Source: Planctomycetota bacterium
Lineage (GTDB): Bacteria; Planctomycetota; PLA2; JAEUHO01
Reading direction: 5' to 3'
Length of the DNA: 64,000 nucleotides
Assembly: GCA_046350655.1 (NCBI GenBank)
Contig: JAXMAB010000004.1
Location: forward strand, 1,005,225 to 1,069,224
Shown: positions 3,622 through 39,106 of the stretch, piece after piece
Layout of the letters: each line of letters opens with the position of its first letter
Position numbering within the stretch: the stretch's first letter is position 1
Position numbers and translations under genes: made by a program
The notes under the pieces: generated by a model
Database searches by the model: none
What the model was told of the DNA's origin: nothing
What the model saw: only the letters and a program-made list of their open reading frames with translations

Positions 3622-3720
3622 GGGGATTCCGGTCGGGAACGGGGGGTGAATCCCGGAGGGTACCAGCCTCGGACGGGACCGGCGCGGTCGGCGCACCCGG
3701 GGGGCGTAGACTCTCGGGTC

Positions 3721-16600: not shown

Positions 16601-19600
16601 CAGGCGGTCGAAGAGGTAGCGGCCGTCCGCCACGGTCTGCGTCGTCCGCAGCAGGCCGCCCGCGCCGTCGAGCAGCTCGACCGTCACGCCGACGAGACCC
16701 GGTTCGCCGAACGCGTCCTGCACGCCGTCGCCGTCGACGTCGAGCCACACGCGATCGCCGATCGCGCCCCGCGGGTCGCCCGAGCCACCGGGCCTCGCGT
16801 ACCCGAAGTCACGACCGCTCACCTCGTTCCCGCCCGCCACCGTCGCGGGCCGCGACGTGACCGTGGTCGCGTCGTACCCCGCGGGCGCGGTGCCGGGCTG
16901 GACCCGCACCGTGTACGCGCCGTCGGGGAGGTGCTCGAACGCGTACGTGCCGTCCGCCGCCGTCGTCGTCGTCGCGACGACGTTCCCGCCGCCGTCCACG
17001 AGCTCGACGCCGACGCCGGGCAGGCCGGGCTCGCCGACGTCCGCCGCGCCGTCGCGGTCCGTGTCGTCGAAGACGGTGCCGCGGACCGCGCCCGTCGGAC
17101 GGTAGCCGAAGTCCTTCGTGAGGTCCGTCGCGCCGTTCGTGACGGTGGCGGGCTGCTGCGCGCCGCCGAACGTGTTCTCGAGGCCCGACGGGAGCGTGGC
17201 CGCGACGACGCGCACCGTGTACGCGCCGTCGGGGAGCCCGCCGAAGAGGTACGTGCCGTCGCCCGCGGTCGTCGTCGTGCGGAGCACCGCGCCGCCGGCG
17301 TCGAGCAGCTCGATACCGACGCCGCCGAGGCCGGGCTCGCCCGCGTCCTGCGCGCCGTCGCCGTCCGCGTCGCGCCACACGCGGTCGCCGAGCGCGCCGG
17401 TGAAGCGGTACCCGACGTCGAGCGTCAGGTTCTGCCCGCCGATCGCGACCGCGCCGACGGGCGACGCCGTCGCCGACGTGCGGACGACGGTCTTCGGCAG
17501 CGTGGTCGCGTCCACCACGAGGCGGTACGTGCCCGCGGGCAGGCCGTCGACGAGGTAGAGGCCGTCCGTGCCCGTCGTGCGCCGGCCGAACGGGGCCGAC
17601 GTGAGGTCGTCGACGACGTCCACCACGACGCCCGGGATGCCCGGCTCGTCGGCGTCCTGCTGCGTGTCGCCGTCGAGGTCGAGCCAGATGCGGTCGCCGA
17701 CCGCGGCCGAGCCGCGGTAGCCGAAGTCGACGTTCGTCGTGGCGGCGGCCTCGACGACGGTGATGGGACGCGCGGCCGGCGGCGTCGTCGACGCGAGGCC
17801 CGGCGGCAGGCTCGAGCCCACCACGCGGACGGTCCAGGCCCCGACGGGCACGTCCTCGAAGAGGTACGCGCCGTCGTTGGCGGTGGTGCGGAACGCGCGC
17901 ACGACGCCGTTCGGGTCGACGAGCTCGAGCGACACGTTGCGCAGGCCCGGCTCCTCCGGGTCCTGCACGCCGTCGCCGTCGCGGTCGAGCCACACGCGGC
18001 CCGAGACGTCCTGCGACGGGCGGTAGCCGAAGTCCACGGGCGGCGTCGGCACGCCCGCCGTCACCGTCACGGGCACCGGCTGGCCGGGCGTCGTGCGCGT
18101 GAGCCCGTCGAGGAGCGGGTTGCCCTCGACGACGTTCACGAGGTAGTCGCCCACGGGCACCGACGTGAACTCGTACGTGCCGTCGGCGCGCGTCGTCGTC
18201 GTCGCGACGACGAGGCCGTCGCGCGTGAGGAGGCGGAGCTCGACGCCGCCGATGGGCGGCTCGCCCGCGTCGTGGACGCCGTCGCCGTCGCTGTCGCGGA
18301 ACACGGTCCCCGTCACCGAGCCGGTGGGGCGGTACCCGAAGTCGAGCGTCACGTCGGCGCCGCCCGCGGGGATCGTCGCGTTCTTGACGTCCGTCGGCGT
18401 CGTGCGGAGCGAGCCGGCGGGGGCCGTCGCGTCGAGGACCTTCACGCGGTACGTGCCCGCGTCGAGGCCGGAGAAGAGGTAGCGGCCGTCGGCGACCGTC
18501 TGCTGCGTCGAGAGCAGCACGTCCGTCTCGGACCGCAGCTCGACCGTCACGCCCGGCAGGCCCGGCTCGCCGTCGTCCTGGACGTCGTCGCCGTCGTCGT
18601 CGCGCCAGACGCGGTCGCCGACGCTGCCCGCGGGGCGGTACCCGAAGTCCGCGGTGCCGATCGCGCCGCCGGCCGGCAGCACGAGGTCGAGCGACGCCGG
18701 CGTCGTCGGCCCGTACCCGGCCGGGACGGTGGCCGTGACCACGCGGACCGTGAAGCTCCCCGCGGCCAGGTTGTCGAAGCGGTACGCGCCGTCGGCGTCC
18801 GTCGTCGTCGTGCGGAGGAACTGGCCCGCGCCGTCGAGCAACTCGAGGCCGACGCCCGGCAGGCCCGGCTCGTCGGCGGACTGCTGCCCGTCGCCGTCGC
18901 GGTCGTACCACACGCGGTCGCCGATCGTGCCGATGGGGCAGAAGCCCACGTCGAGGCCGAAGAGATTCTGGCGCGGCGCGAGCGTCCGCAGGATCGGCAG
19001 CGTCGTCGACGTCGTGCGCCCCGCGAGCGCGGGCTGGCCGGGGACCACCGACACGCTCCACGCGCCGGCCGGGACCGGGTCGAACCGCCACGCGCCGAGC
19101 GCGTCCGTCACGGCGAACAGCGGCGCCGCGCCGGGCACGTCGGTCCGCAGCGCCTGCACGCGCACGCCCGCGAGCGGCGGGTCCACGCGCACGTCGTCGT
19201 CGCCGTCGCAGTCGAGGTCCTCGAAGACGCGGCCCGACAGGCTCTGGCCGTCCACCGGCCGCACCTCGAGGTTCGTCCGCAGGAACCACGAGTTGCGGGC
19301 GTCGAGGTTGTGCATGACGACGACCCAGTCGCCCGGCAGGCCGTCGGCCGGGATCGGGATCGCCTCGAAGCCGGTCTCGGTGCCCGTCTCCTGCGAGACG
19401 TTGCCCGAGAGGTCGAACAGGACGACGCGCAGCGTGCCCGCCGGGTCGTACAGCTCGAGCCACGGGCTGCCGTCGACGCTCGGCTCCGTGGACGTCGGCA
19501 GCCGGTAGCCGGAGTTGTCGCGCGCGACGCCGTTCACCGTGTACGGCCGGCCGTCGTCGGGCGGCACGCCGGGCGCCGACGGGCTCACGGTGCCGTTGCG

Positions 19601-20596: not shown

Positions 20597-20839
20597 ACAG
20601 ACCTCCTGCGGGGAGAGGACCGGAGGCAACTCCGGTGCCGGGCCCTCATCCGGCCTTCATAACGACGGGGAGGGACGCGCCGGGCGCACCTCAAGTCGCC
20701 ATGGATCAAGGACTTACGTCGGCGCGCAACCGACCCGTTGCCGGTCGATTCCGCGACGTCGAGCGGGCGGGGTGCTGCGGAATTCGGACAAGTCCCCCGG
20801 CGCCGATGTCGCACCGCCGCGACACGGACCGTGCGGCCT

Positions 20840-21155: not shown

Positions 21156-24101
21156 TTACTTCTTGCCGCCCTTGTTGCCCGGCTTGCCCGGAGCGGTGCC
21201 GACGCCGTCGTTCACCGGCGGGTTGCCCGGGGGCTGGGGATCGAGGCCGTTGCCGACGCCGTTGTTGCCCTTCGGCTTGTCGTCGCACTTGTCCTTGGGC
21301 TTCTCGCACTTGGACTTGTCGTCGTCGCACTTGTCCTTGGGCTTCTCGCACTTGGACTTGTCGTCGTCGCAGCGGTCCTTGGGCTTGTCGCACTTGGACT
21401 TGTCGTCGTCGCAACGGTCCTTGGGCTTGTCGCACTTGGACTTGTCGTCGTCGCACTTGTCCTTGGGCTTGTCGCCCTTCGGCTTGTCGTCGCAGCGGTC
21501 CTTCGGCTCGTCGCACTTCGGCTTCGGATCGCACTTCGGCTTCGGGTCGCACTTCGGCGGCGGGGGCGGGCAGCAGGGCACCTTCACGATGCACGCCACC
21601 GGGCCGGCCTTGCCGTCGTTGTAGCCCTTCAGCACCAGGTAGACGATCCGGGCGCGCTCCTCGGCGAGGCCGCAGAGCCCGCCGCAGTTCTGCTCGAGCA
21701 GCGCCGCAGCCTCCTCAAGGGCGGCCGCGACCGTCTTCGGGGTGCAGGCCCCGCCGGCGGCGTTGAGCTTCGCGACGATCCACTGCTGGGCGAGGGCCAC
21801 CCACGCGTCGCACTTGGCGCTGGCCTTGAGGATCGACAGCCACGACTTGCCGCAGAGGACCTTGTCCTCGCCGCCGTCGACCGGCCACGCGATCTTCGTC
21901 GCCTCGCAGGTGCCGTACTTGTTGACCGTCTTCCACCAGGCCAGGCCCTTGACGCAGCCGTCCGTGCACGGCTTGTCCGGCCAGCACTCCCAGGCGAGGT
22001 ACGACTTCAGGAAGAAGTCGGGGACGTCATCGCACCAGAGCGGCTTCCAGTCGGCCGGGAACGTCCCGCCGATCTTGAGCGACTTGCAGGAGAACTCGCC
22101 GCAGGCCGCCTCGCCGACGCAGTTGACGACGACCGTCAGCTTCATCGTGCCGTCGAAGTAGCCCATCGGGAACCACGCCGGGTCGGCCGTGGCGCACACG
22201 AGGACCTTGGCGTAGCCGTCGACGACCTTGATGTCCTTGACCTTCAGGACGCCGTTGCGGCCGGTCTGCTCGCCGGGGAAGGCCCCGTCGTAGCCGAAGC
22301 AGGCGAGGTCCACCATCGGCGGGTCGCACTCGCAGCCCTTGTCGAGCCGGACGTAGACGTCGAAGGACGTCGTGGTCGGGTCGGCGAGCCACACGCTCGA
22401 CTCGAAGCACACCTCGTGGAGGCGGCCCGTCTCGCCGCAGTCGCAGGTCTTCTCGCAGTAGCCGATGTCGGCGTCCTTGAGGTTGACCGACGGGACGACC
22501 GTCTTCGACAGCGGCTGGACGATCGCCGACGTCATGTTCGGCACGTCCGAGTCGACCGAGATGTTGTACGTCCCGGCCGGGATCGGGTTGACCGAGTAGA
22601 AGCCGTTCGCGTCCGTCACGCGGAAGATCGGCGCCGCGGGGGCGTCGGTGCGCTGGATGCGGACCGTCAGGCCGGAGAGGGCCGGCTCGACGTCGGCCTC
22701 GTCGTCACCGTCGCAATTCAGGTCGCGGTAGACGCGGCCCTCGAGCGACTGCGTGAGCGGGTTGAACTCGACGTTCGCGCGGAGGAACCACGAGTTGCGC
22801 GCGTCGAGGTTGTGCATCCGCAGCGTCCAGAGGCCCGGGATGCCGTCGAGCGGCACCGGGATCTTCTCGAACGCGGCGCCGGTGTTGTCCTCCTGGGCCA
22901 CGTTGCCCGAGAGGTCGAGCAGCGTCACGCGGACCACGCCGTTCGGGTCCACGAGCTCGAGCCACGGGCTGCCCGCGTCGCTCGGCTGGGCCGCGAACGG
23001 GAGGCGGTAGCCGGAGTTGTCGTGCGCGATGCCGCGCTGGTCGACGTAGGCGCGGCCGTCGTCCGGCGGGATGCCGGCGTTGCTCGGGCTGGGCATGCCC
23101 TCGGGGCTGATGCCCGAGAGGTCGTCCACGTCGTCGGCGTCACCCTCCTCGAGGATGAGGTTCTCGACGAAGTTCACCCAGCTCTGGCCGGGGCTCGGGA
23201 CGAGGCGGATGCCGAGCTCGAAGTCGCCCTTGTACTTGTTCACGAACGGGTCGGGGCTCGGGAACCGGACGGCCGGGAGCGCGGCGGCCGGGCCGTTCAG
23301 GATCGAGTTCAGGTTCGCGCTGGGCTCGAGCACGTCCGGGTAGTGGTCGCGCGAGACCGAGTACTCGTCCCCGTTCACCGGCGAGCCGGGGAACTTGAAG
23401 AGCATGTTGCGCGAGTCGACGACGCCGCCGATGAACCCGCCGGTCAGCAGCTGGCCGACCTGGACGGGGATCAGGCCGAAGGGCGCGTTGATCGCGACCT
23501 TGTAGCCGTTGATCGGGGCGATGTTGCTGCCCGACGGCGTCGGCTGGCGGTACTTCACCAGCAGGCGGTAGACGTGGCGGCCGTCCGGGAGCAGCGCGTT
23601 CGGGTGGTGCGGGCCGTCGTAGAGGAACTGCCAGCGGCCGTCCACGGCGTACGTGAAGATCGCCGCGCCCGGACGGGGCGCCGCGCTCTCCGAGTCGGCG
23701 ATGGCGACCACCGTCTCCGGGGCCGTCGGCGACGCGGTGACGAGGTCGTACTCGACGACCGAGCCGTCCGGCACCGGGTTGCCGTTCGCGTCGTTGTCGA
23801 TCTTGTTCTGGTCCCAGAGGCCGCCCGCGTTGCCGTCGAAGATGGCGACGCGGAGCGAGGTGCTCTCGGCCGGGGCCGCGATCCCGAAGACGTTCGGGCC
23901 GGTCACCGAGCTCGAGCCGACCGCGATGAGGTCCAGGAACACGCCGCTGTGCGTGTCCTTGTCCGGGAGGGCGAGGAACTCCGAGCCGGCGACCAGCTCG
24001 TCGTTGTCGAAAGGCTCGGCGGCGAAGGCCGGCGCCGTCAAGAAGCACGCCGCGGCCGAGAGGCCGAGCAGCGCGCGCGAGAACCACGTCATGCGACCCA
24101 T
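21156..24101 (-). CDS. 981-aa secreted paralog of the giant protein (shared N-terminal module and Cys-rich C-terminal module; no SdrD-B array; K/D/C-rich tandem-repeat tail)
   Basis: Signal peptide MGRMTWFSRALLGLSAAACFLTAPAFAAEPFDNDELVAG. Aligns residue-by-residue with the giant protein N-terminus (AAEPFDNDELVAG.., PINGYKV.., SVSRDHYPDVLEP.., LEEGDADDVDD.., NLDARNSWFLR..) and with its C-terminal module (HEVCFESSVWLADP.., WCDDVPDF.., DAWVALAQ.., CGGLCGLAEERA..). Confidence 0.85.
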   Translation of the reverse strand: MGRMTWFSRALLGLSAAACFLTAPAFAAEPFDNDELVAGSEFLALPDKDTHSGVFLDLIAVGSSSVTGPNVFGIAAPAESTSLRVAIFDGNAGGLWDQNKIDNDANGNPVPDGSVVEYDLVTASPTAPETVVAIADSESAAPRPGAAIFTYAVDGRWQFLYDGPHHPNALLPDGRHVYRLLVKYRQPTPSGSNIAPINGYKVAINAPFGLIPVQVGQLLTGGFIGGVVDSRNMLFKFPGSPVNGDEYSVSRDHYPDVLEPSANLNSILNGPAAALPAVRFPSPDPFVNKYKGDFELGIRLVPSPGQSWVNFVENLILEEGDADDVDDLSGISPEGMPSPSNAGIPPDDGRAYVDQRGIAHDNSGYRLPFAAQPSDAGSPWLELVDPNGVVRVTLLDLSGNVAQEDNTGAAFEKIPVPLDGIPGLWTLRMHNLDARNSWFLRANVEFNPLTQSLEGRVYRDLNCDGDDEADVEPALSGLTVRIQRTDAPAAPIFRVTDANGFYSVNPIPAGTYNISVDSDVPNMTSAIVQPLSKTVVPSVNLKDADIGYCEKTCDCGETGRLHEVCFESSVWLADPTTTSFDVYVRLDKGCECDPPMVDLACFGYDGAFPGEQTGRNGVLKVKDIKVVDGYAKVLVCATADPAWFPMGYFDGTMKLTVVVNCVGEAACGEFSCKSLKIGGTFPADWKPLWCDDVPDFFLKSYLAWECWPDKPCTDGCVKGLAWWKTVNKYGTCEATKIAWPVDGGEDKVLCGKSWLSILKASAKCDAWVALAQQWIVAKLNAAGGACTPKTVAAALEEAAALLEQNCGGLCGLAEERARIVYLVLKGYNDGKAGPVACIVKVPCCPPPPPKCDPKPKCDPKPKCDEPKDRCDDKPKGDKPKDKCDDDKSKCDKPKDRCDDDKSKCDKPKDRCDDDKSKCEKPKDKCDDDKSKCEKPKDKCDDKPKGNNGVGNGLDPQPPGNPPVNDGVGTAPGKPGNKGGKK

Positions 24102-24382
24102 GTGCTTTGCAATCCCTTCCTGGGGAGGGGGACCGGCGTCGGCCGGTCGGACGCGGGACAGTAGCAGAATCCGAGCCGAATGCGGTCCCAGGGTGGATTG
24201 TTTCGTAACTATTTTTCCAGTAACGAGTTACGAGTTTTGGCGTCGTGGGGGGGCGGACGGCCGCCGTTCATCGCGCGCGACGGACGTTCATTTCGCACGA
24301 CATCCCCCTCGCCGCCCGGGATTCCTCCCACCGCGGGCCGCTCTGCCTACAGAATCCCCCCGTCCCCCAGGGGGACCTCCCC

Positions 24383-27471: not shown

Positions 27472-27637
27472 CGGGCCCTTCCGGCACGGGCGAGCGCTCC
27501 CGGCGCGGACGGCGCCTTTCGGCACGGCCACGCCCACACAGCGGCCGGCGGAGCGCACCGCCCCGCCCCGTGCGCCGCCGGCGGTGCGACGGCACCCGCC
27601 CGTCGAGCCCCCGGCGCCCGGCCCCGTCCCGTCCTAT

Positions 27638-28273: not shown

Positions 28274-28671
28274 TCGCCGGGGGGGCCGCGATCGCGGGAT
28301 TCGGGAGTGCGGGAGCGGTGGGGGCGTCGTCGGCGGGGCGGTCCTCGTCGGGTTGCGGCGCTGCGGGGAAGGCCGCTCGCGCCCTCCTCTTCTTCCTCGC
28401 GCGAGCGCGGCCGCGGTCACGCGGATTTCCCCGCGTCGGTAGCCGGGGGTGCCCCCGGTCTCGCGACGATCCCGACGGTTTCCTTCGGTCGCCGGGGGGG
28501 GCGTGATAGCGTCGAGACCTTCCAGGTGCCCCTCGCGCGGCCCCGGGATCGCCCCGCTGCTACGGATCCGAGTGCTTCAGCTCGGGGGTGATCGGCCGGC
28601 CCCCGCGCGAGGTTCCCCTGGCTTGCGACCGGGTCGTAGGCCCCTCGCGCCACGTAACGGAACCCATTCGA

Positions 28672-30477
28672 ATGTTGAAGAGGCTGGCGGAATGCCAGCG
28701 GGTCATCGGGTACGCCTTCGCCGACCCGAATCTGCTCGAGATCGCGCTCACGCACTCGTCCGTCCGCACCCCGGACCGCGAGTGCAACGAGCGTCAGGAG
28801 TTCCTCGGGGACAGCGTCCTCGGGCTCGCGATCACCGAGGAGCTGTACAAGCGTCTTCCTGACCAACAGGAAGGCGAGCTCACCCGCATCAAGTCGGCGG
28901 TCGTCTCCCGCGGCGCGCTCTATCGCGTCTCGACGAAGCTGGGCCTCACCCGCTTCATCGAGGTGGCGAAGGGCGTCGCCCGACGCGAGGAGCTGCCCGT
29001 CTCGCTCACGGCGAACCTCGTCGAGAGCATCATCGGCGCCGTCTACCTGGACGGCGGCTTCTACCCGGCGCGCGAGTTCATCCTCCGCCACCTCGGTCCC
29101 GAGATCGAGGACGTCTTCAACGACCGGGTCCCGAAGAACTTCAAGAGCCTCCTCCAGCACGAGGCGCAGCAGCTCCTCGGCTGCACGCCCGTCTACCGGA
29201 GCGTCGAGGAGGAGGGGCCGGACCACCGCAAGGCGTTCACGGTCGCCGCGATCCTCAAGGGCACGGAGTACGGCCGCGCCACGGGGATCAACAAGAAGGA
29301 AGCCGAGCAGGAGGCCGCGCGTCACGCCCTCGAGGCGCTGAAGTACCGCGGTCGCCGGCGCCGCCGCCGCCTGCCCGAGCTCCGCGAGCGCGACCCGCGC
29401 GAGACCCGCGACACGCGGGACCGCGACGCCCGCGACGCCCGCGACCCGCGCGACCGCGATCGCGACCGCGTCCGCACCATCGTCAAGCAGAGCAGCGACG
29501 CCGACGACTGGCGCGAGTGGGCGGAGGCGGCCGCGAAGCCGGCCGGCCCGACGAACTACGCGATCGCGCCCGAGGCCGACGAGGGCTTCGTGGACGACGG
29601 CGGCGCTCCGCGGCCCGCCGCGCTCGCGCCCGAGTTCGACGCCGACGCGCCGCCCGCCGAGGCGACGCCGTCCGACGCGCCGGCCGAGACGTCCGCGCGT
29701 GACGAGGCCCCGCGCGAGGGCGACGCGCCCGCCGCCGGCCGCGAGCCGGCCGAGGGCGATGCGGAGGGCGACGGACGTCGTCGGCGTGGCCGCCGCGGCG
29801 GTCGTGGCCGCGGTCGCGGTCGTCGCGACGACGAGGGCGCGCCGCCCGCGCCGGGCATCGCCCCGGAAGCGGACGCGATGCCGCCCGAGGACGCCGCTCC
29901 GGCGGTGCCGCCGGAGGCCGACGCGTCCGGCGACGTGCCCGCGGCGTTCGTGGACGGGCCCGAGCCGTCCTCTTGGCCGGACGGCCCGAGCGAGCCCGTG
30001 CCGGCGCCGCGTGAGCGCCGCCCCCGTGGCGGACGTGGACGCGGTCGCCGTCCGGCCGCCGACGCGGCCCCGGCGGGCGACGAGGCCACGCCGGCTGCGG
30101 ATCCCTCCGCGCGCGGCGGCGACTTCGCGTTGAGCGACGCGCCGCCGTCCGAGGCTCCGGCACCGCCGCCGGCCCGACGGGGTGGCGGTCGTCGCGCGGC
30201 CGCGCCGAAGCCGGAAACGGCACCGGCGGCGGATCCCGCGCCGGTCGTGCGCGAACCCGCGCCCTCGATGCCGGCTCCGAAGCCGGCTCCCAAGCCGGCG
30301 CCCACAGGCCCCGCGTTCGGCGCGGGCGTGATCGGCAGCGAGACGCCGCCGCCGCCGGCGCCGAAGTCGTCGGTCGCGCCCGAGGTGAAGCCGACGGTCG
30401 AGGTCGAGGGCCGCCGCAAGGCGCCCGTGACGCCGAAGAAGCCGCCCGCCGACGGCGGGTTCGGTGTCGGGCTGTAG
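28672..30477 (+). CDS. rnc: ribonuclease III with a ~370-aa low-complexity C-terminal extension (RD repeats, RGG/RGR tract, Pro/Ala-rich)
   Basis: N-terminal 230 aa: ERQEFLGDSVLGLAITEELY (RNase III signature), a dsRBD (KSLLQHEAQQ...KKEAEQEAARHALEAL). Then RGRRRRRRLPELRERDPRETRDTRDRDARDARDPRDRDRDRVRT, GRRRRGRRGGRGRGRGRRDD, RGGRGRGRR and PAPKPAPKPAP. Confidence 0.8.
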   Translation: MLKRLAECQRVIGYAFADPNLLEIALTHSSVRTPDRECNERQEFLGDSVLGLAITEELYKRLPDQQEGELTRIKSAVVSRGALYRVSTKLGLTRFIEVAKGVARREELPVSLTANLVESIIGAVYLDGGFYPAREFILRHLGPEIEDVFNDRVPKNFKSLLQHEAQQLLGCTPVYRSVEEEGPDHRKAFTVAAILKGTEYGRATGINKKEAEQEAARHALEALKYRGRRRRRRLPELRERDPRETRDTRDRDARDARDPRDRDRDRVRTIVKQSSDADDWREWAEAAAKPAGPTNYAIAPEADEGFVDDGGAPRPAALAPEFDADAPPAEATPSDAPAETSARDEAPREGDAPAAGREPAEGDAEGDGRRRRGRRGGRGRGRGRRDDEGAPPAPGIAPEADAMPPEDAAPAVPPEADASGDVPAAFVDGPEPSSWPDGPSEPVPAPRERRPRGGRGRGRRPAADAAPAGDEATPAADPSARGGDFALSDAPPSEAPAPPPARRGGGRRAAAPKPETAPAADPAPVVREPAPSMPAPKPAPKPAPTGPAFGAGVIGSETPPPPAPKSSVAPEVKPTVEVEGRRKAPVTPKKPPADGGFGVGL

Positions 30478-30525
30478 GCCTTCCGCCCGCATCCCACGAC
30501 CCCACGGTCGACGATCCCCTGTTCC

Positions 30526-30561
30526 GACACGCGAGGCCCGGTGCGAACCGGGCCTCGCGTC
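30526..30561. repeat. REP-like palindrome GACACGCGAGGCCCGG tgcgaa CCGGGCCTCGCGTC between convergent rnc and the 30560..33004 gene (overlaps the latter's stop codon)
   Basis: Inverted arms seen directly. Confidence 0.6.
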
Positions 30562-33004
30562 ATTTCGGGGCGTCCGCGGGCCAGACGATCTTCACGTCGC
30601 GGGTCTCGCCGTCGGTGATCGTGAAGGTCTGGAGCGCGGGCGAGGTCTCGGCCTCGTCGTCGTCGGTGCGCACGGCCCACGTCCCCGGCTCGACGGGGTG
30701 CTCGAAGCGGCCGTCGGGCCCCGACACCACGGCCTGCCACGGGTCGTCGTGGTCCACGTCGGGGTCGGTCTTCTCCTCCGCGGCCGCGTCGGCGCCGACG
30801 CGCCGCAGGTAGAAGAGCCGTTCGACGGCGGGCGTCCCGTCGGCGTCCACGACCTGCCCGCGCACGCGCCCGCGGCGCGTGACCACGAGTCGCAGCCCGC
30901 CCGCGGGCACTTCCGTGACGCGGATGAGAGCCCTGAGGAACTCCATGCCGCCCACCTGGAGGTCGAACGGCGGCGGCGGGAAGTCCTCGAGCAGGAATCG
31001 CCCGTGGACGTCGGACGTGTCGGAACCCCACAGGCAGTCGGCGGCATCGACCCTGGCCTCCGGAATCGGGGCGCCTCGGCGGTCCACCACCGTCCCCGGG
31101 ATCCGGCGCCCGCGCTCGAGGCGTACCGTCCCGAGATCGACGGTCTCCGCCCCGCGGACCGACGTCCTCCGCCAGGCCCACGCCCACCCATCGGCGTGGA
31201 CGAGCAGCGCGACCTCGCCGCGGTCGAGTCCGCGGAACTCGACGGACCCGTGCCGGAAGTGTCCCCTTTCGATGCTGTCCCCGTCCAACAACAACTCGGC
31301 GTGGACCGTGCCTTCGGGGACGGCGCCGTCCGTCGTGAGCACTTGGGCGAGTACGGACGCGCGGGGCGTAACGACGATGCGTACCGGCGGCGCACCCGCG
31401 AGGACCCGAAGCGGCTGGTCCAACGCACGGCCGCGGTCGGGCGTCCAGACGTCTAGCCACCGTGCCGTCGCGTCGAGTCCGGAGAATCGGAACCTGCCTT
31501 CCGGGTCGGTCCTCGCCTCGCGGACGCCCGGTCGGTCGCGGTCCCAGAAATGCGTCCACCAGCGCCGTTTGGGGATCGAGTCGTCGAAGTCCGACGCGGG
31601 CGCGGCGATGACGCTGGCGGCCGCGACCGCTTGGCCCCCTTCGTCCACGACCAGTCCTTCGATCATCCGCCCTGCGTCGAGCGAGACGGTGACCCGGGTC
31701 GTAGTGCCTGCCACGGGCACGATCCGACGGACGACCGATCGGAGTCCGTCACTTCCTACGAGAAGCCACGCCGGTTCGTCCGACAGGTTGTCGAAACTTG
31801 CGAGTGCTCCGCGCGTGGCGAACTTCGACCCGGCCTGCACCAACTGCGAGAATGCGCCGTCGCAGGGCCCGCCGGGGCCGACGACCTCGATCTCCAGACG
31901 CGCGGCCCGCTGCAGCCGAAGCTCGATGGGCCTCGCGGCGCTGGCGACGTCCACGCGCGTCACCGGGGAGGGGCCAAACCCGTCCTTCACAGCCCGTACC
32001 CACGCGGTCGAGCGGCCGGGGGGGAGCGGGTGCGAGAAGGACCCGTCGGCCGCGGTCCGGGTGGACTCGCTGTCGGGCGGCGAGTACGCGGCGACATCCC
32101 GTGCGAGGGCCACGTCCTCTTCCTGCGTCCGTGGTGACGCGTCGATCACGGATCGCAGGCGGGCGCCGGGTTCGCCGCCGGTGACGTAGACCCGTGCGTC
32201 CGCCGCGACATTCCCATCGGCGTCGCGCACGATCCCGGAGATCACCGTGCAGCGCTCGAGTGCGAGCTCCAACGGGGGTTCCACGACGTCGGGCGGTGCC
32301 GCACGGACCCGGAGGGTCCGCTCGAAGAATCCGACGTGGTCCGCGACGATCTCGGTGGCAACCCCGGGCTCGACTCCCGAGAGCCGGAAGCGACCGTCGG
32401 CGTCCGTCGGGCCGATCTCCACCTCGTTCACGAGGACGCTCGCGCCCGCCACCGGCGCGCCGGACGCAGCGTCGATCACGCGGCCGACGACCTCGCGTCC
32501 GGGGCGCATCTCGAGTCGGACGACGTTCGTGTCGCGCTCGAGCTCCGTGTTCCCGGCTCCGCACGGGCACAATCCCGCGGCCCAGGCCTCGACTTCGACG
32601 ACCCGGAGGTCGGTCGAGGGGAACTCGCACGCTCCCTGCGCGTCCGTCTCCTTCGTCGCGAGCACGTCGAGGCTGTTCCAGCGCCGGACGCGGACGGTGA
32701 CGCCGGCGCGGGGCACGTCGTTCACGGTCACGAACACACGCAGGGTCGTGGGGCGCGCGGCGGCGGCCGCGCCCGCGGGCCGGTCGGCGTCTCGGGTCGA
32801 GGTGCGTCGGCCGGCGGCGGCGAGTGCGGCGTCGGTCGGTTGCGTCCCGCCGGTGACGTGGCCCGGTGCCTTGGCGCCGGGCGCGGCGGCCGCGTCGTCC
32901 TGCGTCGGGGCGAACGGGCCCACACCGCGGGACCACGCGAGCGCCACCGCGCCGCCGATCACGAGCAGCAGGCCGGCCAGCGCACCGAGTCCGCGACGCG
33001 TCAC
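30560..33004 (-). CDS. membrane-anchored protein with repeated carboxypeptidase-regulatory-like / Cna-B-like beta-sandwich domains
   Basis: 814 aa. N-terminal TM segment LGALAGLLLVIGGAVALAW. At least 6 repeats of the pattern G.V.D..G.PV.GA.V......TDA.GRF.. (e.g. GRVIDAASGAPVAGASVLVNEVEIGPTDADGRFRLSGVEPG). Confidence 0.7.
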   Translation of the reverse strand: MTRRGLGALAGLLLVIGGAVALAWSRGVGPFAPTQDDAAAAPGAKAPGHVTGGTQPTDAALAAAGRRTSTRDADRPAGAAAAARPTTLRVFVTVNDVPRAGVTVRVRRWNSLDVLATKETDAQGACEFPSTDLRVVEVEAWAAGLCPCGAGNTELERDTNVVRLEMRPGREVVGRVIDAASGAPVAGASVLVNEVEIGPTDADGRFRLSGVEPGVATEIVADHVGFFERTLRVRAAPPDVVEPPLELALERCTVISGIVRDADGNVAADARVYVTGGEPGARLRSVIDASPRTQEEDVALARDVAAYSPPDSESTRTAADGSFSHPLPPGRSTAWVRAVKDGFGPSPVTRVDVASAARPIELRLQRAARLEIEVVGPGGPCDGAFSQLVQAGSKFATRGALASFDNLSDEPAWLLVGSDGLRSVVRRIVPVAGTTTRVTVSLDAGRMIEGLVVDEGGQAVAAASVIAAPASDFDDSIPKRRWWTHFWDRDRPGVREARTDPEGRFRFSGLDATARWLDVWTPDRGRALDQPLRVLAGAPPVRIVVTPRASVLAQVLTTDGAVPEGTVHAELLLDGDSIERGHFRHGSVEFRGLDRGEVALLVHADGWAWAWRRTSVRGAETVDLGTVRLERGRRIPGTVVDRRGAPIPEARVDAADCLWGSDTSDVHGRFLLEDFPPPPFDLQVGGMEFLRALIRVTEVPAGGLRLVVTRRGRVRGQVVDADGTPAVERLFYLRRVGADAAAEEKTDPDVDHDDPWQAVVSGPDGRFEHPVEPGTWAVRTDDDEAETSPALQTFTITDGETRDVKIVWPADAPK

Positions 33005-33050
33005 GACACCCTCCGCGAGCAGCGTACCCGGGCGCGGTCCGTCGTGCCGG

Positions 33051-33212
33051 TCAGTACGGCAACTTGTGCGAGCGCCCGGGCTTCAGGGCGTTCAGGCACC
33101 CGAAGCCGTTGTTCTCCCGGCGGAGGGCGCGCCAGACCACCCAGCCCATGAGCACCGGGAACGCGATCGCGATGCCCAGGCGAATCCATATCGCGACGCC
33201 GAGCGTGATCAT
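33051..33212 (-). CDS. possible small membrane protein (53 aa)
   Basis: MITLGVAIWIRLGIAIAFPVLMGWVVWRALRRENNGFGCLNALKPGRSHKLPY, one TM helix. Lies between two co-directional genes. Support is weak because it is only the tail of a longer spurious track ORF. Confidence 0.3.
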   Translation of the reverse strand: MITLGVAIWIRLGIAIAFPVLMGWVVWRALRRENNGFGCLNALKPGRSHKLPY

Positions 33213-33400
33213 GCGTCGCGCGCTCCGTGCCCGGGGCCGACCTCGCTCCGCCGACGTCGGACGGCCGCGATCCAGGTGAGGTTCGGGGTCGTCCGCTCCA
33301 TCCCGGCATTGTGCCACGCGACTCTCCGTCGGCGGCCGCCGGGCCTCGCGTCCCGGGGAGGGGGATGCGGACAGGACGGTGGGGCAAGGGTCGCGGGGCG

Positions 33401-35533
33401 TCAGCGAAGCGCGCTGCGTCGGAGAAGGCGCACCTCGATCGGCGACGCGGCCGACGGGTCCACCGTGCGCTCCATGTACCGGTCGTCGGTCTCGAAGACC
33501 AGCCGCACGGCCGTGCGTGGCACGTGTTCCATCGTGAAGCGACCGTCCGTGTCGGTGCGCGTCCAACGGAAGTCCTCGACCTCGGGGCACCGGACCGTCG
33601 CGCCCGCGATCGGATGCCCGGCCGGGTCGAGCGCGCGGCCGGTGATCGTCGCGCCGACGTCGAGCACGACGTCGTCGAGGTCCACCGCGGCGCCGCCGCG
33701 GACCGAGAACGTGCGCCGTACCCACGCCGCGTCCGACGGGCACACGACCCAGACGTAGTCGCCGTCGGACAGGCCGTCGTGGGAGAGGACGCCGTCGTCG
33801 GGTTCGCGCGTGCCACCCTTGCCGCCACCGTCGGTCGAGAGCATGACCTCGACGCGACGCGTGTAGGGGCGCCGTTCGGCGTCCAGGAGCCGCATTCGGA
33901 CGCGGCCCTCGGGCGCGAGGACGACCCGCAGGTCGCGCGCGGGCGCGGTGGCGGGTACGCGGAAGGCGCCCGCAGCGTGGCCACGTTCGTCTTTCCATTT
34001 GACGTGCAGGTGGATGGGGCCCGGCCACACGCCCGAAACGGAGAATCGCCCCGACCCGTCCGTGCGCGTTCGGATCGACGGCGCGCCGGGCAGGCCATCG
34101 ACGCTCCAACGGTCGATCACGACGGACGCGTCCGCGAGCGGCAAGCCGCCGACGTCCACGACCGTGCCCGCGACGGTCGCGCCCGTGGACAGCGGCAGGT
34201 CGAGCTCGATCGTCGCGCCCTCCTCGACGTCCACGAACGTCGCGGCCGGCAGGAAGCCCTCGGTCTCCGCGAACACGAGCACGCGCCCGGGCACGACGTC
34301 CACCAGGCGCACGCGGCCGTCCGCTTCGGCTCGCGCGGGTCGCCTGGGGAACGAGGGCGGCGACGTGGCCCAGGCAATCCGCACGTCGTGGGGCGAGTTG
34401 GCCCCGTCCGGCACGGTGCAGCGCACGAGCAACACGGCCGGCCGACGGATCCGCAACTCGACGTCCCGTCCCGGCGCCGCGTCGGTCGTCGGCAACACGT
34501 CGGCCACGTCCGCCGCCGCGGCGTGCCCGAACACGCTCGCAGAGACACCGTACGCCGCGCCGAGCTCGAGCCCGTCGAACACGAACCTGCCGTTGCGGTC
34601 GCTGATCTGGAAGGCCGGATTGCTGCGCGCGACCAGCCGCCGACCCCACAGGAACTGCGCGACGTCGGCCGGCACGGCGGCGGGCCACGCCTCCGCGGCG
34701 TCCTCGGCGAGCTCGGCGACGGTGCGCGCCCGCACCGTCACCTCGGGCATCGGGCGGCCGTCCGGGCCCAGGACGACCCCGCGGATCGTGCCCCCGCGCT
34801 CGAGGCGGACGACCGTCGGATCGCGCTCGGGCCGCCCGCCGTCGGCGCGGAGCTTCACGGCCGACGTGCGGAACCCCGCCGCGCTCACGACGAACGTCGT
34901 CTCGTCGTTGTCCGCGAGGCCCGGGAGGGCCATCGTGCCGGTCGCGTCGGTCGCGCCCACCGGAAGCGGGATGCCCCAGCCTTCGACGGCGACCCTCGCA
35001 CCCGCGATGCCCGCCTCGCCGTCGGCCGCGACGACCCGAAGGCTGGCGGCGACGCCCGCGAGGAGCGGGATCGGGACGGGCGCCCCGTCCTCCGGCGGGC
35101 CGTGCCCGAGCTGACCGAAGTAGACGCGGTACCCGGGCGCCACCGCGTGGAAGTACCGCTCGCCCCGGGGCACGCCGTCGACGGACGCAAGGCCCGCCGC
35201 GTCACTGGCCACGGGCGCGAGCCAGTCCACGCCGTTCGGGTCGTGGACCCAGATGCGGGCCCCGGCGATCGGCGTGCCGGCGGGGTCCGCGACGCGGAAC
35301 GTGAGCCACGGCGCCGCCTCGGCCGGCGCCGGACCCTGCGATGCTCGAGGTTTCGGGGCCTCGCCGCGCGGCGAGGCCGCGAGGTCGCGCGGCGCGGGCG
35401 TCTCGGTGGGTGCCGGTCCGGCCGCGGGACTGTCGGCCGCGGGACCGCCCTTCTGCCGCAGCCCGATCCACGCGACGACGGCCAGCAATCCGGCCGCGAG
35501 GCACGCGAGGCCCGCTGCATTCCGTCGGTTCAC
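33401..35533 (-). CDS. second membrane-anchored carboxypeptidase-regulatory-like repeat protein (710 aa, GTG start)
   Basis: C-terminal 710 aa of track ORF 33401..38737. GTG start with GGGAGGGAGG 5 nt upstream. TM segment AAGLACLAAGLLAVVAWIGL, then repeats GARIWVHDPNG..., GTIRGVVLGPDGRPMPEVTV, GATVAGTVVDVGGLPLADASV, ATITGRALDPAGHPIAGATV..TDTDGRF. The upstream 1,068 codons of the track ORF are antisense to mfd and were rejected. Confidence 0.7.
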   Translation of the reverse strand: MNRRNAAGLACLAAGLLAVVAWIGLRQKGGPAADSPAAGPAPTETPAPRDLAASPRGEAPKPRASQGPAPAEAAPWLTFRVADPAGTPIAGARIWVHDPNGVDWLAPVASDAAGLASVDGVPRGERYFHAVAPGYRVYFGQLGHGPPEDGAPVPIPLLAGVAASLRVVAADGEAGIAGARVAVEGWGIPLPVGATDATGTMALPGLADNDETTFVVSAAGFRTSAVKLRADGGRPERDPTVVRLERGGTIRGVVLGPDGRPMPEVTVRARTVAELAEDAAEAWPAAVPADVAQFLWGRRLVARSNPAFQISDRNGRFVFDGLELGAAYGVSASVFGHAAAADVADVLPTTDAAPGRDVELRIRRPAVLLVRCTVPDGANSPHDVRIAWATSPPSFPRRPARAEADGRVRLVDVVPGRVLVFAETEGFLPAATFVDVEEGATIELDLPLSTGATVAGTVVDVGGLPLADASVVIDRWSVDGLPGAPSIRTRTDGSGRFSVSGVWPGPIHLHVKWKDERGHAAGAFRVPATAPARDLRVVLAPEGRVRMRLLDAERRPYTRRVEVMLSTDGGGKGGTREPDDGVLSHDGLSDGDYVWVVCPSDAAWVRRTFSVRGGAAVDLDDVVLDVGATITGRALDPAGHPIAGATVRCPEVEDFRWTRTDTDGRFTMEHVPRTAVRLVFETDDRYMERTVDPSAASPIEVRLLRRSALR

Positions 35534-35614
35534 GACGTCCTCCCTCCCCAGCGTACCCGCCCGGCCGGAGCGGGTGGGGGCGCCCGCGCGCGCGCGGGTA
35601 CCATCGGCCCTTTC

Positions 35615-38600
35615 GTGACCGCCGACCGCTCGGCTGCGCCCTACCCTGACCCCGCCCACGTGGCGGCCCCCGTCGCGGGCCTCCTCGCCCGGAAGAAGTC
35701 CGTCCGCGTGGGGGGCGTCCACGGCGGCGCCGTCGGCCTCCTCGTCGCGGGCCTGCGCGCGCACGCGCCCGCGATCCTCGTCGTCACGAGCGACGCGCGC
35801 GCGGCCGACGCCGCCGTCCTCGACGTCGCGACCTTCGCCCACGACGACGCGCTGTCGTTCCCGACGTGGCCCCACGGCGCCGGCCAGGGGCCGCCGGACC
35901 CCGACGTCCTCTCCGCGCGCGTCGCGGTGCTCGATGCCGCCCGCGCGGCACGCGAGGCCCGGTCCGCGCCGGCGAGCGGGCCTCGCGTCCCGGGAGAGGG
36001 GCCGCCGTCCCCGCGCGCCGGGTCGCGGGCGTCGGCCGCGGCGGCGCCGGGCCCGCTCGCGCCCGTGTTCGTCGCGCCCGTGGGGGCGCTCGTGCAGGAC
36101 GTGCCGTCGCCCGTCGTCGTCGAGCGGGCCGGCCTCGTGCTCGCGCTCGGCGAGACGCACGCGCCGGGGTCGCTCCTCGAGCACCTCGCGTTGTCGGGGT
36201 ACGTGCGCGTCGGCGCCGTCGAGACGCCCGGCGAGTTCGCGGGCCGCGGCGGCGTGGTCGACGTCTTCCCGTACGGCGCGAAGGCGCCCGTGCGCCTCGA
36301 CTTCTTCGGCGACGTGCTCGAGTCGGTGCGCGTGCTCGACCCCGCGACGAACCGCGTCGGGGCGGGCCTCGCGTCGGTGCGGTTGCTCTGCCTGCCCCCC
36401 GAGCGCGTGCGCGACCCCGCGGCCGACTCGGGGCCGTGCACGATCCTCGAGCACCTGCCGCCGGACGCGCTCGTGGTGCTCGTCGAGCCGTCGGTCGTCG
36501 CGGGGCGGCTGGCGGTGGGCAAGGGCGTGGCGATCGTGGGCGACCGCGTGCGGTGGAAGCGGCTCGACGGGGGCCTCGCGGCCGCGCGGCGCCTCGACCT
36601 CGCCGCGCTGCGGCTCGGCCCCGACGGCGATCTCGACCTCGAGGTGGGCACGCTGGAGGAGGTGCGCGGGATCGCGGAGCGGGCGGAGCGCGCGAGCGCC
36701 GCGCGCAAGGGCCCGACGCGCGCCGACCCGCAGGCCCTCGTCGCGGAGGCGCTGCGGCGGCTGACGACGCGCGCGGACCGCATCGTCGTGTTCCGGCGCG
36801 CGCCGGGCGAGGAGGAGCGGCTCAAGGAGCTGATGCCCGACGCGCCGCTCGTGTTCGCGGAGGGGTCGCTCTCGGCGTCGTTCCTCCTGGCGAAGGAGCG
36901 CGTCGCGTTCCTCGCGTACGACGACCTCGCCGACCTCTCCCTGCGCGAGCGGCGGCCCCGCGGCATCGCCGGGGCCTCGCGGCCGCTGCAGGACTTCCTC
37001 GAGCTCGAGGTCGGCGAGCCCGTCGTGCACCTGCACCACGGCATCGGCGTGTTCCGCGGGCTCGCGCCGCTCGACGGCGGCGCGCAGGCGATGAAGCTCG
37101 AGTTCGCGGAGGGCACGACGCTGTTCGTGCCCGTCGCGCGCATCGACCTCGTGCAGCGGTACGTCGGCACGGGGCGGCGCCCGCGGCTCTCGAAGGTCGG
37201 CGGGTCGGAGTGGGCGGCGAAGAAGGCGAAGGTCGAGGACGCGGTGCTCGAGTTCGCCGAGGGGCTGCTCGAGGTGCAGGCCCAGCGCACGCGGCGCGCG
37301 GGCCCGCCGATGAAGCCGCACCCGCACTGGCAGGACGAGTTCGAGCGCTCGTTCCCCTGGAAGGACACGCCGGACCAGGCGGCGACGACGCTCGCGCTGC
37401 GGGCCGACCTCGCGGGCCCGCGGCCCATGGACCGCCTGCTGTGCGGCGACGTCGGCTACGGCAAGACCGAGCTCGCCCTGCGCGCCGCGTTCCTCGTCGC
37501 GACGGCGGGGCGGCAGGTGGCCGTGCTCGTGCCGACCACCGTGCTGTGCGAGCAGCACCGCCGCACGTTCGAGGCGCGGCTCGCGTCGTACCCCGTCGTG
37601 GTGCGCGCGCTGTCGCGGTTCCGCACGCCGGCCGAGCAGCGCGAGATCGTCGCGGGCCTCGCGGACGGCTCCGTGGACGTCGTCGTCGGCACGCACCGCC
37701 TGCTGTCGAAGGACGTGAAGTTCAAGGACCTCGCCATGGTCGTCGTGGACGAGGAGCAGCGGTTCGGCGTCGAGCACAAGGAGAAGCTGAAGGCGCTCAA
37801 GGCCGACGTGGACGTGCTCACGCTGACCGCGACGCCGATCCCGCGCACGCTGCACATGGCCCTGCTCGGCATCAAGGACATCAGCAACCTCACGACGCCG
37901 CCGCCGGGCCGCCGGCCCATCGAGACGAAGCTCGCGCGCTTCGACGAGGCGCTCATCCGCGAGGCGATCGTGCGCGAGCTCGACCGCGGCGGGCAGGTCT
38001 ACTACCTCCACAACCGCGTCTACGACCTGCCGGTGGTCGTCGGCCGCGTCCTGCGGCTCGTGCCCGACGCGCGCGTCACCTCCATCCACGGCCAGATGGA
38101 CCGCGACCTCGTCGAGGAGCGCATGCTCCAGTTCGTCCGGGGCGACGTGGACGTGCTCGTGTCCACGACCATCGTCGAGTCGGGCCTCGACATCCCCAAC
38201 GCCAACACGATGGTCATCGAGGACGCCGAGCGGTACGGCCTCGCCGAGCTGCACCAGCTGCGCGGCCGCGTCGGGCGCGAGCAGCGCCACGCCCACTGCC
38301 TCCTCCTCGTCGACAAGGACCGCTCGCTGTCGGAGGAGGCCGCGCGCCGCCTCACCGCGCTCGAGGAGTACAGCGAGCTCGGCGCGGGCTTCCGCATCGC
38401 CATGCGCGACCTCGAGCTCCGCGGCGCCGGCAACCTCCTCGGCGCGCAGCAGTCGGGCCACATCGCCGCGGTCGGGTACGAGCTCTACTGCAAGATGCTC
38501 GCCGACGCCGTCCACCGCGTCCGCAAGGACCCGCCGCGGACCGGCGACCCCGCCACGGTGGACGTGGACGTCCCGTGCGGCCTGCCGCCGGCCTACGTCG

Positions 38601-39106
38601 CGGACGCGCGCGAGACGTTCCGCCTCTTCCGCCGCGTCTCGACCGCGCCCACCGCCGAGGTGCTCGCCGACCTCCGCGACGAGCTCGTCGCGCGGTTCGG
38701 CCCGCTGCCCCCCGACACGCAGCGGCTGTTCCTCCACCAGGGCGTGCGCCTCGCGGCGGGGGCGCTCGGGATCGGCCGCGTCGGCGCCGCCGAGGCCGGC
38801 GGGCTCGTCGTCGAGGCGCGGCCGGGCACCGACGCCATCGACCGGCTCGCGGCGCGCGGGGTCCGCATCCGTCGCCTCGCGACGCCCGGGACCGCCTACG
38901 TCCCGCCGCCCGAGGGGCCGCCGGGCCGCACGCTCGTGGCGCTCCTCGAGGCCTCGCTCGTCGCGTTGCTCGCGCGCCTGGGGCCGGATCGGCCGGGGCC
39001 GGGCCCCGGGACCCCGGGCGGTCCCGGCGGGGGACCGCGAGGCCCGGCGGCGGGCGGGGACGGCGCGTCGCGCGGGGCTCCCTCGCGGGTATCTTCGCGA
39101 CGATGA
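35615..39106 (+). CDS. mfd: transcription-repair coupling factor Mfd
   Basis: About 1,163 aa from GTG 35615 within track ORF 33227..39106. N-terminal UvrB-homology region, DEAD/DEAH motor (CGDVGYGKTE.., VVDEEQRFGV, LTLTATPIPRTL, HQLRGRVGR) and TRCF C-terminal domain. Start codon uncertain (no ATG nearby). Confidence 0.85.
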   Translation: MTADRSAAPYPDPAHVAAPVAGLLARKKSVRVGGVHGGAVGLLVAGLRAHAPAILVVTSDARAADAAVLDVATFAHDDALSFPTWPHGAGQGPPDPDVLSARVAVLDAARAAREARSAPASGPRVPGEGPPSPRAGSRASAAAAPGPLAPVFVAPVGALVQDVPSPVVVERAGLVLALGETHAPGSLLEHLALSGYVRVGAVETPGEFAGRGGVVDVFPYGAKAPVRLDFFGDVLESVRVLDPATNRVGAGLASVRLLCLPPERVRDPAADSGPCTILEHLPPDALVVLVEPSVVAGRLAVGKGVAIVGDRVRWKRLDGGLAAARRLDLAALRLGPDGDLDLEVGTLEEVRGIAERAERASAARKGPTRADPQALVAEALRRLTTRADRIVVFRRAPGEEERLKELMPDAPLVFAEGSLSASFLLAKERVAFLAYDDLADLSLRERRPRGIAGASRPLQDFLELEVGEPVVHLHHGIGVFRGLAPLDGGAQAMKLEFAEGTTLFVPVARIDLVQRYVGTGRRPRLSKVGGSEWAAKKAKVEDAVLEFAEGLLEVQAQRTRRAGPPMKPHPHWQDEFERSFPWKDTPDQAATTLALRADLAGPRPMDRLLCGDVGYGKTELALRAAFLVATAGRQVAVLVPTTVLCEQHRRTFEARLASYPVVVRALSRFRTPAEQREIVAGLADGSVDVVVGTHRLLSKDVKFKDLAMVVVDEEQRFGVEHKEKLKALKADVDVLTLTATPIPRTLHMALLGIKDISNLTTPPPGRRPIETKLARFDEALIREAIVRELDRGGQVYYLHNRVYDLPVVVGRVLRLVPDARVTSIHGQMDRDLVEERMLQFVRGDVDVLVSTTIVESGLDIPNANTMVIEDAERYGLAELHQLRGRVGREQRHAHCLLLVDKDRSLSEEAARRLTALEEYSELGAGFRIAMRDLELRGAGNLLGAQQSGHIAAVGYELYCKMLADAVHRVRKDPPRTGDPATVDVDVPCGLPPAYVADARETFRLFRRVSTAPTAEVLADLRDELVARFGPLPPDTQRLFLHQGVRLAAGALGIGRVGAAEAGGLVVEARPGTDAIDRLAARGVRIRRLATPGTAYVPPPEGPPGRTLVALLEASLVALLARLGPDRPGPGPGTPGGPGGGPRGPAAGGDGASRGAPSRVSSRR
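35949..35995. repeat. REP-like palindrome (CACGCGAGGCCCGG tccgcgccggcgag CGGGCCTCGCGTCCCGGG) lying inside the mfd reading frame
   Basis: Encodes ..REARSAPASGPRVPGEG.. within a ~30-aa insertion relative to E. coli Mfd, between the conserved segments corresponding to ..LSTLYQL and PTMQRGVLIVPV... Confidence 0.55.

Follow-up and report, generated by a model that had tools for sequence, protein, structure and literature searches.

The usual picture of RNase III in bacteria is that of a compact, stand-alone dimer, and scaffold tails are a textbook feature of RNase E. The class 1 enzymes, represented by Rnc from E. coli (226 aa), Aquifex (221 aa) and Thermotoga (252 aa), comprise a catalytic domain and one domain that binds double-stranded RNA (dsRBD). 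RNase E, the scaffold of the E. coli degradosome and of the bacterial ribonucleoprotein bodies (BR-bodies) of Caulobacter, is a major endoribonuclease with a long disordered C-terminal tail; this tail contains Arg-rich boxes with acidic flanks, blocks of local charge and short conserved motifs, one of which sits at the extreme C-terminus. Drosha (class 2), another member of the RNase III family, likewise has a long region of low complexity, rich in Pro and Arg, attached to the enzyme. Here we describe the rnc gene (28672..30477, + strand) in a stretch of 64,000 nucleotides from a member of the Planctomycetota (contig JAXMAB010000004.1, positions 1,005,225 to 1,069,224; hereafter the window), whose product shares the catalytic domain and the single dsRBD of class 1 Rnc, and differs from it in 375 extra residues past the dsRBD, i.e. 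about 1.7 times the enzyme's own length.

The gene has 601 codons followed by a TAG stop (30475-30477). The open reading frame (ORF) finder called 629 codons (28588-30477, + strand) starting with GTG at 28588; because the orthologs begin with MLKRLAECQ or MSKRLAECQ, the most likely start is ATG at 28672 (MLKRLAECQ) rather than this GTG, which gives a protein of 601 aa. The RNase III core (aa 1–226; 28672..29349, + strand) consists of the catalytic domain followed by the dsRBD, as delineated by Pfam and by AlphaFold2 (AF2). Pfam identified Ribonucleas_3_3 (PF14622, E-value 2.4e-26, 92.8 bits against a cut-off of 35), Ribonuclease_3 (PF00636, E-value 6.1e-20, 72.3 bits against 27) and, C-terminal to the catalytic domain, one dsrm domain (PF00035, E-value 5.1e-16, 59.4 bits against 23, aa 158–223); together they span aa 18–224 of the protein's 601, and each exceeds its gathering score. 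The NCBIfam equivalog TIGR02191 (RNaseIII) was matched with 198.4 bits (cut-off 166.25). In the AF2 model built from an 87-sequence alignment the predicted local distance difference test score (pLDDT) of the core is 90–99, and the dsRBD adopts the α-β-β-β-α fold with pLDDT >90. The catalytic domain contains the signature ERQEFLGD (28789-28812, + strand), which corresponds to the ERxEFLGD of class 1 Rnc, and ANLVES (29011-29028, + strand), and shares the catalytic Glu with these enzymes. Residues E40, E43, D47 and E118 are invariant across the 87 aligned sequences, E118 being aligned with the catalytic Glu positions mutated from E to Q in the Drosha entry 6lxd. Asn115 occupies one metal-site position, which we take to be that of the metal-site residue D114 of E. 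coli; Ala-Asn precedes E118 in nearly all of the 87 planctomycete RNase III proteins, and Drosha exhibits Asp at the aligned position in RIIIDb (ADLLES) and Asn in RIIIDa (ANCFEA). There is a single RNase III domain per chain, while two are characteristic of class 2 (the Drosha type). The protein is thus a class 1 bacterial RNase III in everything that was tested save its length: the chain has 601 aa, 375 of them past the dsRBD, where a total of ~220–250 aa with nothing behind that domain is usual; short length is an architectural habit of class 1 RNase III and no condition of membership.

The tail (aa 227–601; 29350-30474) begins after EALKYR, with EAARHALEALKYRG closing the dsRBD at aa 226/227. 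An extension of ~370 aa behind the catalytic domain and the dsRBD had been proposed in the initial annotation, and with 375 aa and all Pfam and NCBIfam domains upstream of it this proposal was borne out; the peptides quoted there are all present where they had been placed. The argument offered for it, namely a well-biased frame with no stop, did not hold. The tail DNA has 78–84% GC (~82% overall), and as at such a composition nearly all six frames are open, an open frame is no proof of coding: the sense frame and a single antisense frame contain no stop, each of the other four has only 1–4, and in two orthologs 5 of the 6 tail frames are fully open. A stop-free frame is here no better than chance, and GC content at the third codon position (GC3) discriminates poorly in the middle of the tail, where GC1, GC2 and GC3 all lie at 0.72–0.98 and codon-position bias is weak. 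Open frame and GC3 were thus rejected as insufficient proof, and the frame was judged coding on the comparison with orthologs instead of the window sequence alone.

For this comparison the window was set against four further DNA versions from independent assemblies (L009, L001, L012 and L013). In all five loci a single frame leads to an identical C-terminal GGFGVGL, and the gaps in their alignment all comprise whole codons, which upholds the earlier view of one continuous rnc gene that needs no frameshift, and shows that the extension is shared by orthologs to its last residues. The ratio of nonsynonymous to synonymous substitution rates (dN/dS) of the tail is 0.21, 0.24, 0.38 and 0.56 as the distance grows (0–0.21 in the core), and the tail substitutions between the window and L009 number 10, 9 and 45 at codon positions 1, 2 and 3. 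On the 691-codon antisense ORF the fastest-evolving sites would sit at codon position 1, and the overlapping and antisense ORFs have no Pfam family match, in agreement with their earlier dismissal as artefacts. A search with the full protein retrieved planctomycete RNase III sequences of 336–671 aa, among them P0001, which is 96% identical over 100% of the query. The tails of P0002, P0003 and P0017 go off frame and partly regain the conserved frame further on, and on the contig of P0003 the C-terminal module is a separate call of 111 aa (P0247); these broken versions are probably indel or assembly errors in a difficult GC-rich repeat stretch. Comparison of the sequences thus indicates that the tail is genuine, lies in the translated frame and is under purifying selection.

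The order of genes in the window is prfB, purH, dps and rnc, followed by two CarboxypepD_reg genes on the minus strand and then mfd. The prfB/purH/dps-rnc order is common to L009 and L013, and the context prfB-purH-(dps)-rnc-mfd is shared by the window, the tail-bearing loci L009, L013 and L124, and the tail-less L125. The mfd start lies 109 bp past the stop of the tail in L013 and 34 bp past it in L122, which retains the rnc-mfd pair. In L125 the canonical 242-aa rnc (P0142) stands in the order prfB-purH-rnc-mfd, and its stop overlaps the mfd start by 4 bp. Since the gene context is the same as that of this 242-aa rnc, the tailed gene is by position the ortholog of the ordinary planctomycete rnc, and the tail grew in place. 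A search with the core only revealed that all relatives with core identity of at least ~65% begin a tail (GRGRRRR...), the short members among them being fragments, while planctomycete sequences at ~50% core identity, including named Gemmataceae and Phycisphaerae, have 227–260 aa. Complete tails have ~120–440 aa. As judged from these sequences, the tail is specific to one planctomycete clade with core identity of at least ~65%.

The earlier description of the tail as rich in Arg, Asp and Gly is correct for these residues (Arg 13.6%, Gly 10.7%, Asp 9.9%) and incomplete, as Ala (19%) and Pro (18%) lead the composition; Glu contributes 8.0%, and A, P, R, G, D, E and K together account for 82% of the tail. 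With 61 basic and 67 acidic residues its net charge is -6. The tail has no match in Pfam, NCBIfam or the PDB sequences. In two AF2 runs, with the 87-sequence and with a shallower alignment, pLDDT is <60 over nearly all of aa 230–601 and the sole secondary structure consists of two weak helices (aa ~261–272 and 277–287, pLDDT 51–58). The tail is therefore predicted to be intrinsically disordered, as had been anticipated, and would qualify as a long disordered region of the RNase E scaffold type. Alternating charge blocks, a feature of the BR-body-type scaffolds, are present as well: local charge segregation exceeds that of shuffled sequences in 15 of 15 tails (z 1.8–9.0; 2.6 in the window). Tandem repeats occur in the DNA throughout the tail. 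Mean identity in the tail alignment is 44% and conservation is very uneven, with 6 of 10 aromatic positions occupied by an aromatic residue in every aligned sequence.

The conserved elements were delineated with an alignment of 13 tail-bearing orthologs (A1) and an alignment of 8 tail sequences (A2); all lie on the + strand. The tail starts with GRRRRRR (aa 227–233; 29350..29370), a basic extension of the last dsRBD helix, in which G227, R228 and R230–R233 are invariant in A1; the AF2 helix covers aa 208–229. It is followed by an Arg-Asp dipeptide repeat (aa 238–266; 29383..29469), encoded by a GC-rich tandem repeat with periods of 6, 9, 18 and 33 according to Tandem Repeats Finder (29383-29475). 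The copy number differs between close relatives, always in frame: P0001 lacks 3 of the codons, P0004 has a far shorter repeat, and in P0002 the repeat is longer. The region of the two weak helices (29467..29538) contains D-D-x-W-[RK]-x-W-A-E (29503-29526), with W280, W283, A284 and E285 invariant in A2, E285 invariant and A284 present in at least 90% in A1, and W280 and W283 missing from the two most distant members of A1 (P0023 and P0027). The acidic-aromatic YAIAPEADEGF (aa 296–306; 29557..29589) exhibits in A2 invariant Y296, P300 and E301 and always an aromatic residue (F, W or Y) at position 306. The main Arg/Gly box, GRRRRGRRGGRGRGRGRR (aa 368–385; 29773..29826), has acidic flanks and is kept in all close orthologs. 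The segment AAFVDGPEPSSWPDGP (aa 424–439; 29941..29988) is conserved in closer orthologs only, its SWPDGP being kept in P0001 and P0004-P0007 and replaced by SWPDF in P0010, with W435 present in 62% of A2. A second Arg/Gly box, RERRPRGGRGRGRR (aa 447–460; 30010..30051), and a third, small one, RRGGGRR (aa 502–508; 30175..30195), complete the series; the segment with the latter is absent from several orthologs.

The most sharply defined element is the C-terminal module (aa 539–601; 30286..30474, + strand), comprising FGAGV (30316-30330), VEVEGRRKAP (30397-30426) and the terminal GGFGVGL (30454-30474). In 56 sequences (the window and P0001-P0055) the motif F-[GDAS]-x-G-[LI] occurs at most 5 aa from the C-terminus in 46, and in 36 of these 46 at the very end. 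A second copy is found 42–51 aa upstream of the terminal one in 36 of 44 cases, with an (E)A-x-x-R-[RK]-K-A-P element between the two. No substitutions occur at F549, G552, F597 or G600, and A584 and P585 are retained in at least 90%. The pLDDT of the module is slightly raised (52–68), with no secondary structure in the AF2 model. Of 53 internal FxxG[LIV] copies, 27 have Asp or Glu as the next residue, as though its side chain mimicked the free carboxylate of the terminal copy, and distant members possess up to five FxxG[LI] copies (P0054). The acidic-GFGxGL tip recalls the acidic-GFGLFD tip borne by ribosomal stalk proteins of archaea and eukaryotes. In the window the module motif is confined to rnc, and three approaches of limited sensitivity found the module on no protein other than RNase III. 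The tail profile, run against 1.84 billion representative proteins, gave strong E-values only for the rnc P0042 and a 67-aa rnc fragment; the module profile, run against a word-indexed database, returned two fragments only and missed known positives, which makes this search uninformative. A degenerate DNA pattern (KAP...GF.xG[LI]-stop) matched 108 stretches of metagenome contigs, four with the true module and the rest by chance. Two of the four (L028 and L035) lie in ORFs with an RNase III signature and two (L031 and L074) are cut by the contig start; the C-terminal 75 aa of L031 are identical to those of L028.

Besides the two strong hits, the tail profile gave 10 weak ones (E 3e-5 to 8e-4) among 12 at E ≤ 0.001. 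According to Pfam they include three RNase E/G C-terminal regions, one NYN nuclease tail and one RDD protein, the rest being without a clear domain, and all were matched via an acidic stretch followed by a RRRRGRRGGRGRGR box. It is the main Arg/Gly box that matches the RNase E/G regions (P0234, P0238 and P0240) and the NYN protein (P0236). These low-complexity matches, weak as they are, may be taken as an unbiased pointer to the Arg-rich segments of the RNase E type, and they lend substance to the likeness to RNase E scaffolds that the initial annotation had remarked on. There are also differences: the rnc tail is attached to the catalytic domain of RNase III and not of RNase E/G, its motifs are not the known RNase E ones, which bind PNPase, helicase, enolase or other partners, and it lacks the GWW-type ends of P0238 and P0240. 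No hydrophobic amphipathic helix of the membrane-targeting type was seen in the tail, in which only the acidic WxxWAE helix pair is predicted. By analogy, then, the tail would work like an RNase E scaffold tail, and it is no member of that family. A survey from 2011 listed planctomycete RNase E/G homologs of 509–588 aa that lack the degradosome-scaffolding extension (PMC3071783), so that a scaffold borne by RNase III would occupy an empty niche.

The likeness to Drosha is one of architecture. Among solved sequences, Drosha chains score best against the core, partly through matching twice, and no sequence relation to the tail was detected in the PDB sequence search; Drosha differs in having two catalytic domains per chain and a disordered region that is N-terminal and Arg/Ser-rich. 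The same general design is seen in RNase III proteins of a Methylomirabilota/Eisenbacteria type, for which no description was found in the searchable papers. They combine a canonical core with 250–350 aa of acidic and Arg-rich disorder, a RRRRGRRGGRGRG box and a conserved tip, but their tails end with PDYGRRGRRR and lack the FxxG[LI] module, and core identity is 44–48%; this looks like an independent or long-diverged solution. The PDYGRRGRRR-COOH lineage is represented among P0080-P0120 (e.g. P0086, P0099 and P0104), some of the names including Methylomirabilota and Eisenbacteria, and some members begin with an amphipathic segment rich in Phe and Trp (FWSWLKELF, FFAWLKSLFGF, LWGWLKSLF), similar to a membrane-targeting helix, in their N-terminal part. 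Among P0057-P0068, P0069-P0074, P0079 and P0094 there is a planctomycete-like group with tails ending in ...PAAPDASAQP and devoid of the FxxG[LI] module. In another planctomycete-like group the disordered Arg-rich region, of up to ~400 aa, is N-terminal, and in P0070 it contains a copy of the motif, DDGFGAGV.

We infer, and regard as rather probable, that the tail supplies additional RNA binding and docks partners. It may be pictured as a quickly drifting polyampholyte linker, charged in local blocks, in which conserved elements of two kinds are embedded. The Arg boxes, i.e. the extension of the dsRBD and several RRRRGRRGGRGRGR-type boxes between acidic stretches, would add sequence-independent affinity and avidity for RNA, a function assigned to them by analogy with what Arg-rich segments do in the C-terminal domain of RNase E. 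The acidic blocks would balance these boxes and make the tail a polyampholyte able to condense with RNA. The aromatic motifs (WxxWAE and YAIxPEADEGF) and the C-terminal module (FxxG[VIL], RRKAP and GGFGxGL-COOH) would dock partner proteins or ribonucleoproteins, and since RNase III is a dimer, four or more FxxG[LI] peptides would be displayed on each enzyme. In this picture RNase III is no free 226-aa dimer and would instead work while tethered, or as a hub, possibly inside condensates. A bolder version, which we consider rather unlikely, is that RNase III took over the scaffold role in this clade, in a degradosome-like complex or an RNA condensate, with multivalent FxxG[LI]-(D/E or COOH) peptides and RRKAP as a new docking code. 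Several observations weigh against an RNA-binding and docking tail. AF2 docking of the tail motifs onto the core gave no confident signal (no pair-error map being available), and the gene neighborhood points only to mfd, which adjoins tail-less rnc as well. The RNase E matches are weak (E ~1e-4) and fall in low-complexity Arg/Gly sequence, the charge blockiness of the window tail is modest (z 2.6) and not significant by the sequence charge decoration measure, and genomes of high GC content generally favor disordered sequence rich in Ala, Pro, Arg and Gly. With a length that varies between 120 and 440 aa and much of it unalignable beyond close relatives, a large part of the tail may be neutral spacer.

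A rival view is that the whole tail is a neutral by-product, which arose by stop loss or read-through, expanded by slippage in GC-rich DNA and is translated, tolerated and functionless. The tandem repeats throughout its DNA, the many in-frame indels and the variable RD repeat between close relatives, the wide range of lengths and the rise of dN/dS to 0.56 at greater distance would all fit, and with stops almost absent in every frame, extensions are easily gained. Yet dN/dS is below 1 in all comparisons, the motifs and a C-terminal module of 60 aa with fixed spacing are kept across tails that are otherwise unalignable, and a stop stands directly after GGFGxGL in 36 of the 46 sequences bearing the terminal motif, so that we deem neutrality very unlikely. 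Close to refuted, and the most improbable explanation of all, is a sequencing frameshift that fused rnc to a separate gene or to non-coding DNA. Frameshift errors do occur in this region, as the off-frame tails of P0002, P0003 (with the detached module P0247) and P0017 illustrate, but such broken versions are exceptions that regain the conserved frame further on, and the window, L009, L010, L011, L001, L012 and L013, which are independent assemblies, all read through to the same C-terminus.

Two other explanations grant the tail a function. According to one of them, in our opinion unlikely, it is a regulator in cis: the acidic stretches would mimic nucleic acid and mask the dsRBD and the Arg boxes, the C-terminal module would fold onto the catalytic dimer, and it would be the RNA concentration, salt or a modification, not the recruitment of partners, that gates activity. 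A near-neutral polyampholyte with acidic residues on the flanks of every Arg box is compatible with masking, as is the slightly raised pLDDT of the module, but AF2 yields no confident structure or contact of the tail, and up to five FxxG[LI] copies in P0054 fit multivalent binding in trans better than a single fold-back. The other, to which we assign a small probability, is that the tail is a localisation device holding RNase III on the nucleoid, RNA polymerase or nascent ribosomes for co-transcriptional processing of rRNA. It can draw on the histone-H1-like Lys/Ala/Pro repeats in the tails of P0041 and P0057 and the PAPKPAPKPAP that the window tail also carries, and on the position of rnc directly 5' of mfd, the gene of an RNA-polymerase-binding factor, across Planctomycetota. 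The adjacency to mfd holds for tail-less rnc too and is uninformative on the tail, though, and no known polymerase- or ribosome-binding motif was recognised in it; besides, localisation overlaps with RNA binding and partner docking instead of excluding them.

As to the surroundings, rnc lies directly 5' of mfd in L125 (7001-10998), L013 (8001-13100), L122 (7001-12010) and the window (28672-39103), and the 4-bp overlap in the tail-less relative suggests an rnc-mfd operon; one database call (P0056, 985 aa) fuses RNase III and Mfd domains. In the window the CarboxypepD_reg genes (30560-33004 and ~33404-35600, - strand) are inserted between rnc and mfd. Between the convergent rnc and CarboxypepD_reg genes there is a perfect inverted repeat with a 12-bp stem, CGCGAGGCCCGG-TGCGAA-CCGGGCCTCGCG (30530..30559, no strand), which has no T run and hence was not called by the terminator consensus scan; it is a possible two-way terminator. 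Promoter and terminator consensus scans yielded nothing useful, and no structured leader was detected 5' of rnc, where folding equals that of shuffled sequences (z 0.07) and Rfam gives no hit. Divergence from L009 is patchy: over the rnc core together with the final ~180 nt of the 5' spacer (28494-29393) it is 0–2%, in dps 5–7% and in the tail ~6% (dS 0.024 in the core, 0.145 in the tail), and similar patches of low divergence occur within the gene downstream (31344-31943). The simplest reading is mosaic recombination; an alternative may be a constraint that acts on the rnc leader at the RNA level. L009 possesses between purH and dps a 494-aa HEAT_2-repeat gene (2350-3906) that is absent from the window (~27529-27594), and L013 a minus-strand protein kinase gene between dps and rnc. 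Elsewhere in the window, a stop-free ORF of 4324 codons (7685-20656, - strand) with coding-like GC3 (0.97) adjoins a 1023-aa ORF with an SdrD_B-like domain (21159-24227, - strand).

No description of disordered tails on bacterial RNase III was found in the searchable literature, outside which subscription journals largely fall. The tailed proteins are already in the databases under the plain name ribonuclease III, and disordered Arg-rich tails on RNA enzymes of GC-rich bacteria are of a type that will not surprise specialists. The comparison made here demonstrates that even in very GC-rich genomes a long tail can be validated, and indicates that frameshift errors have probably broken several of the tailed rnc versions in the databases. 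It also provides sharply defined short peptides, foremost the C-terminal 63 aa, which can be used directly as bait for partners. The phylum in which the tail occurs is one with RNase E/G listed as lacking a scaffold (PMC3071783), and at least one other lineage, with names including Methylomirabilota and Eisenbacteria, has tails with motifs of its own. A conserved, motif-bearing tail on RNase III suggests that RNA-processing hubs may be built on another nuclease than RNase E.

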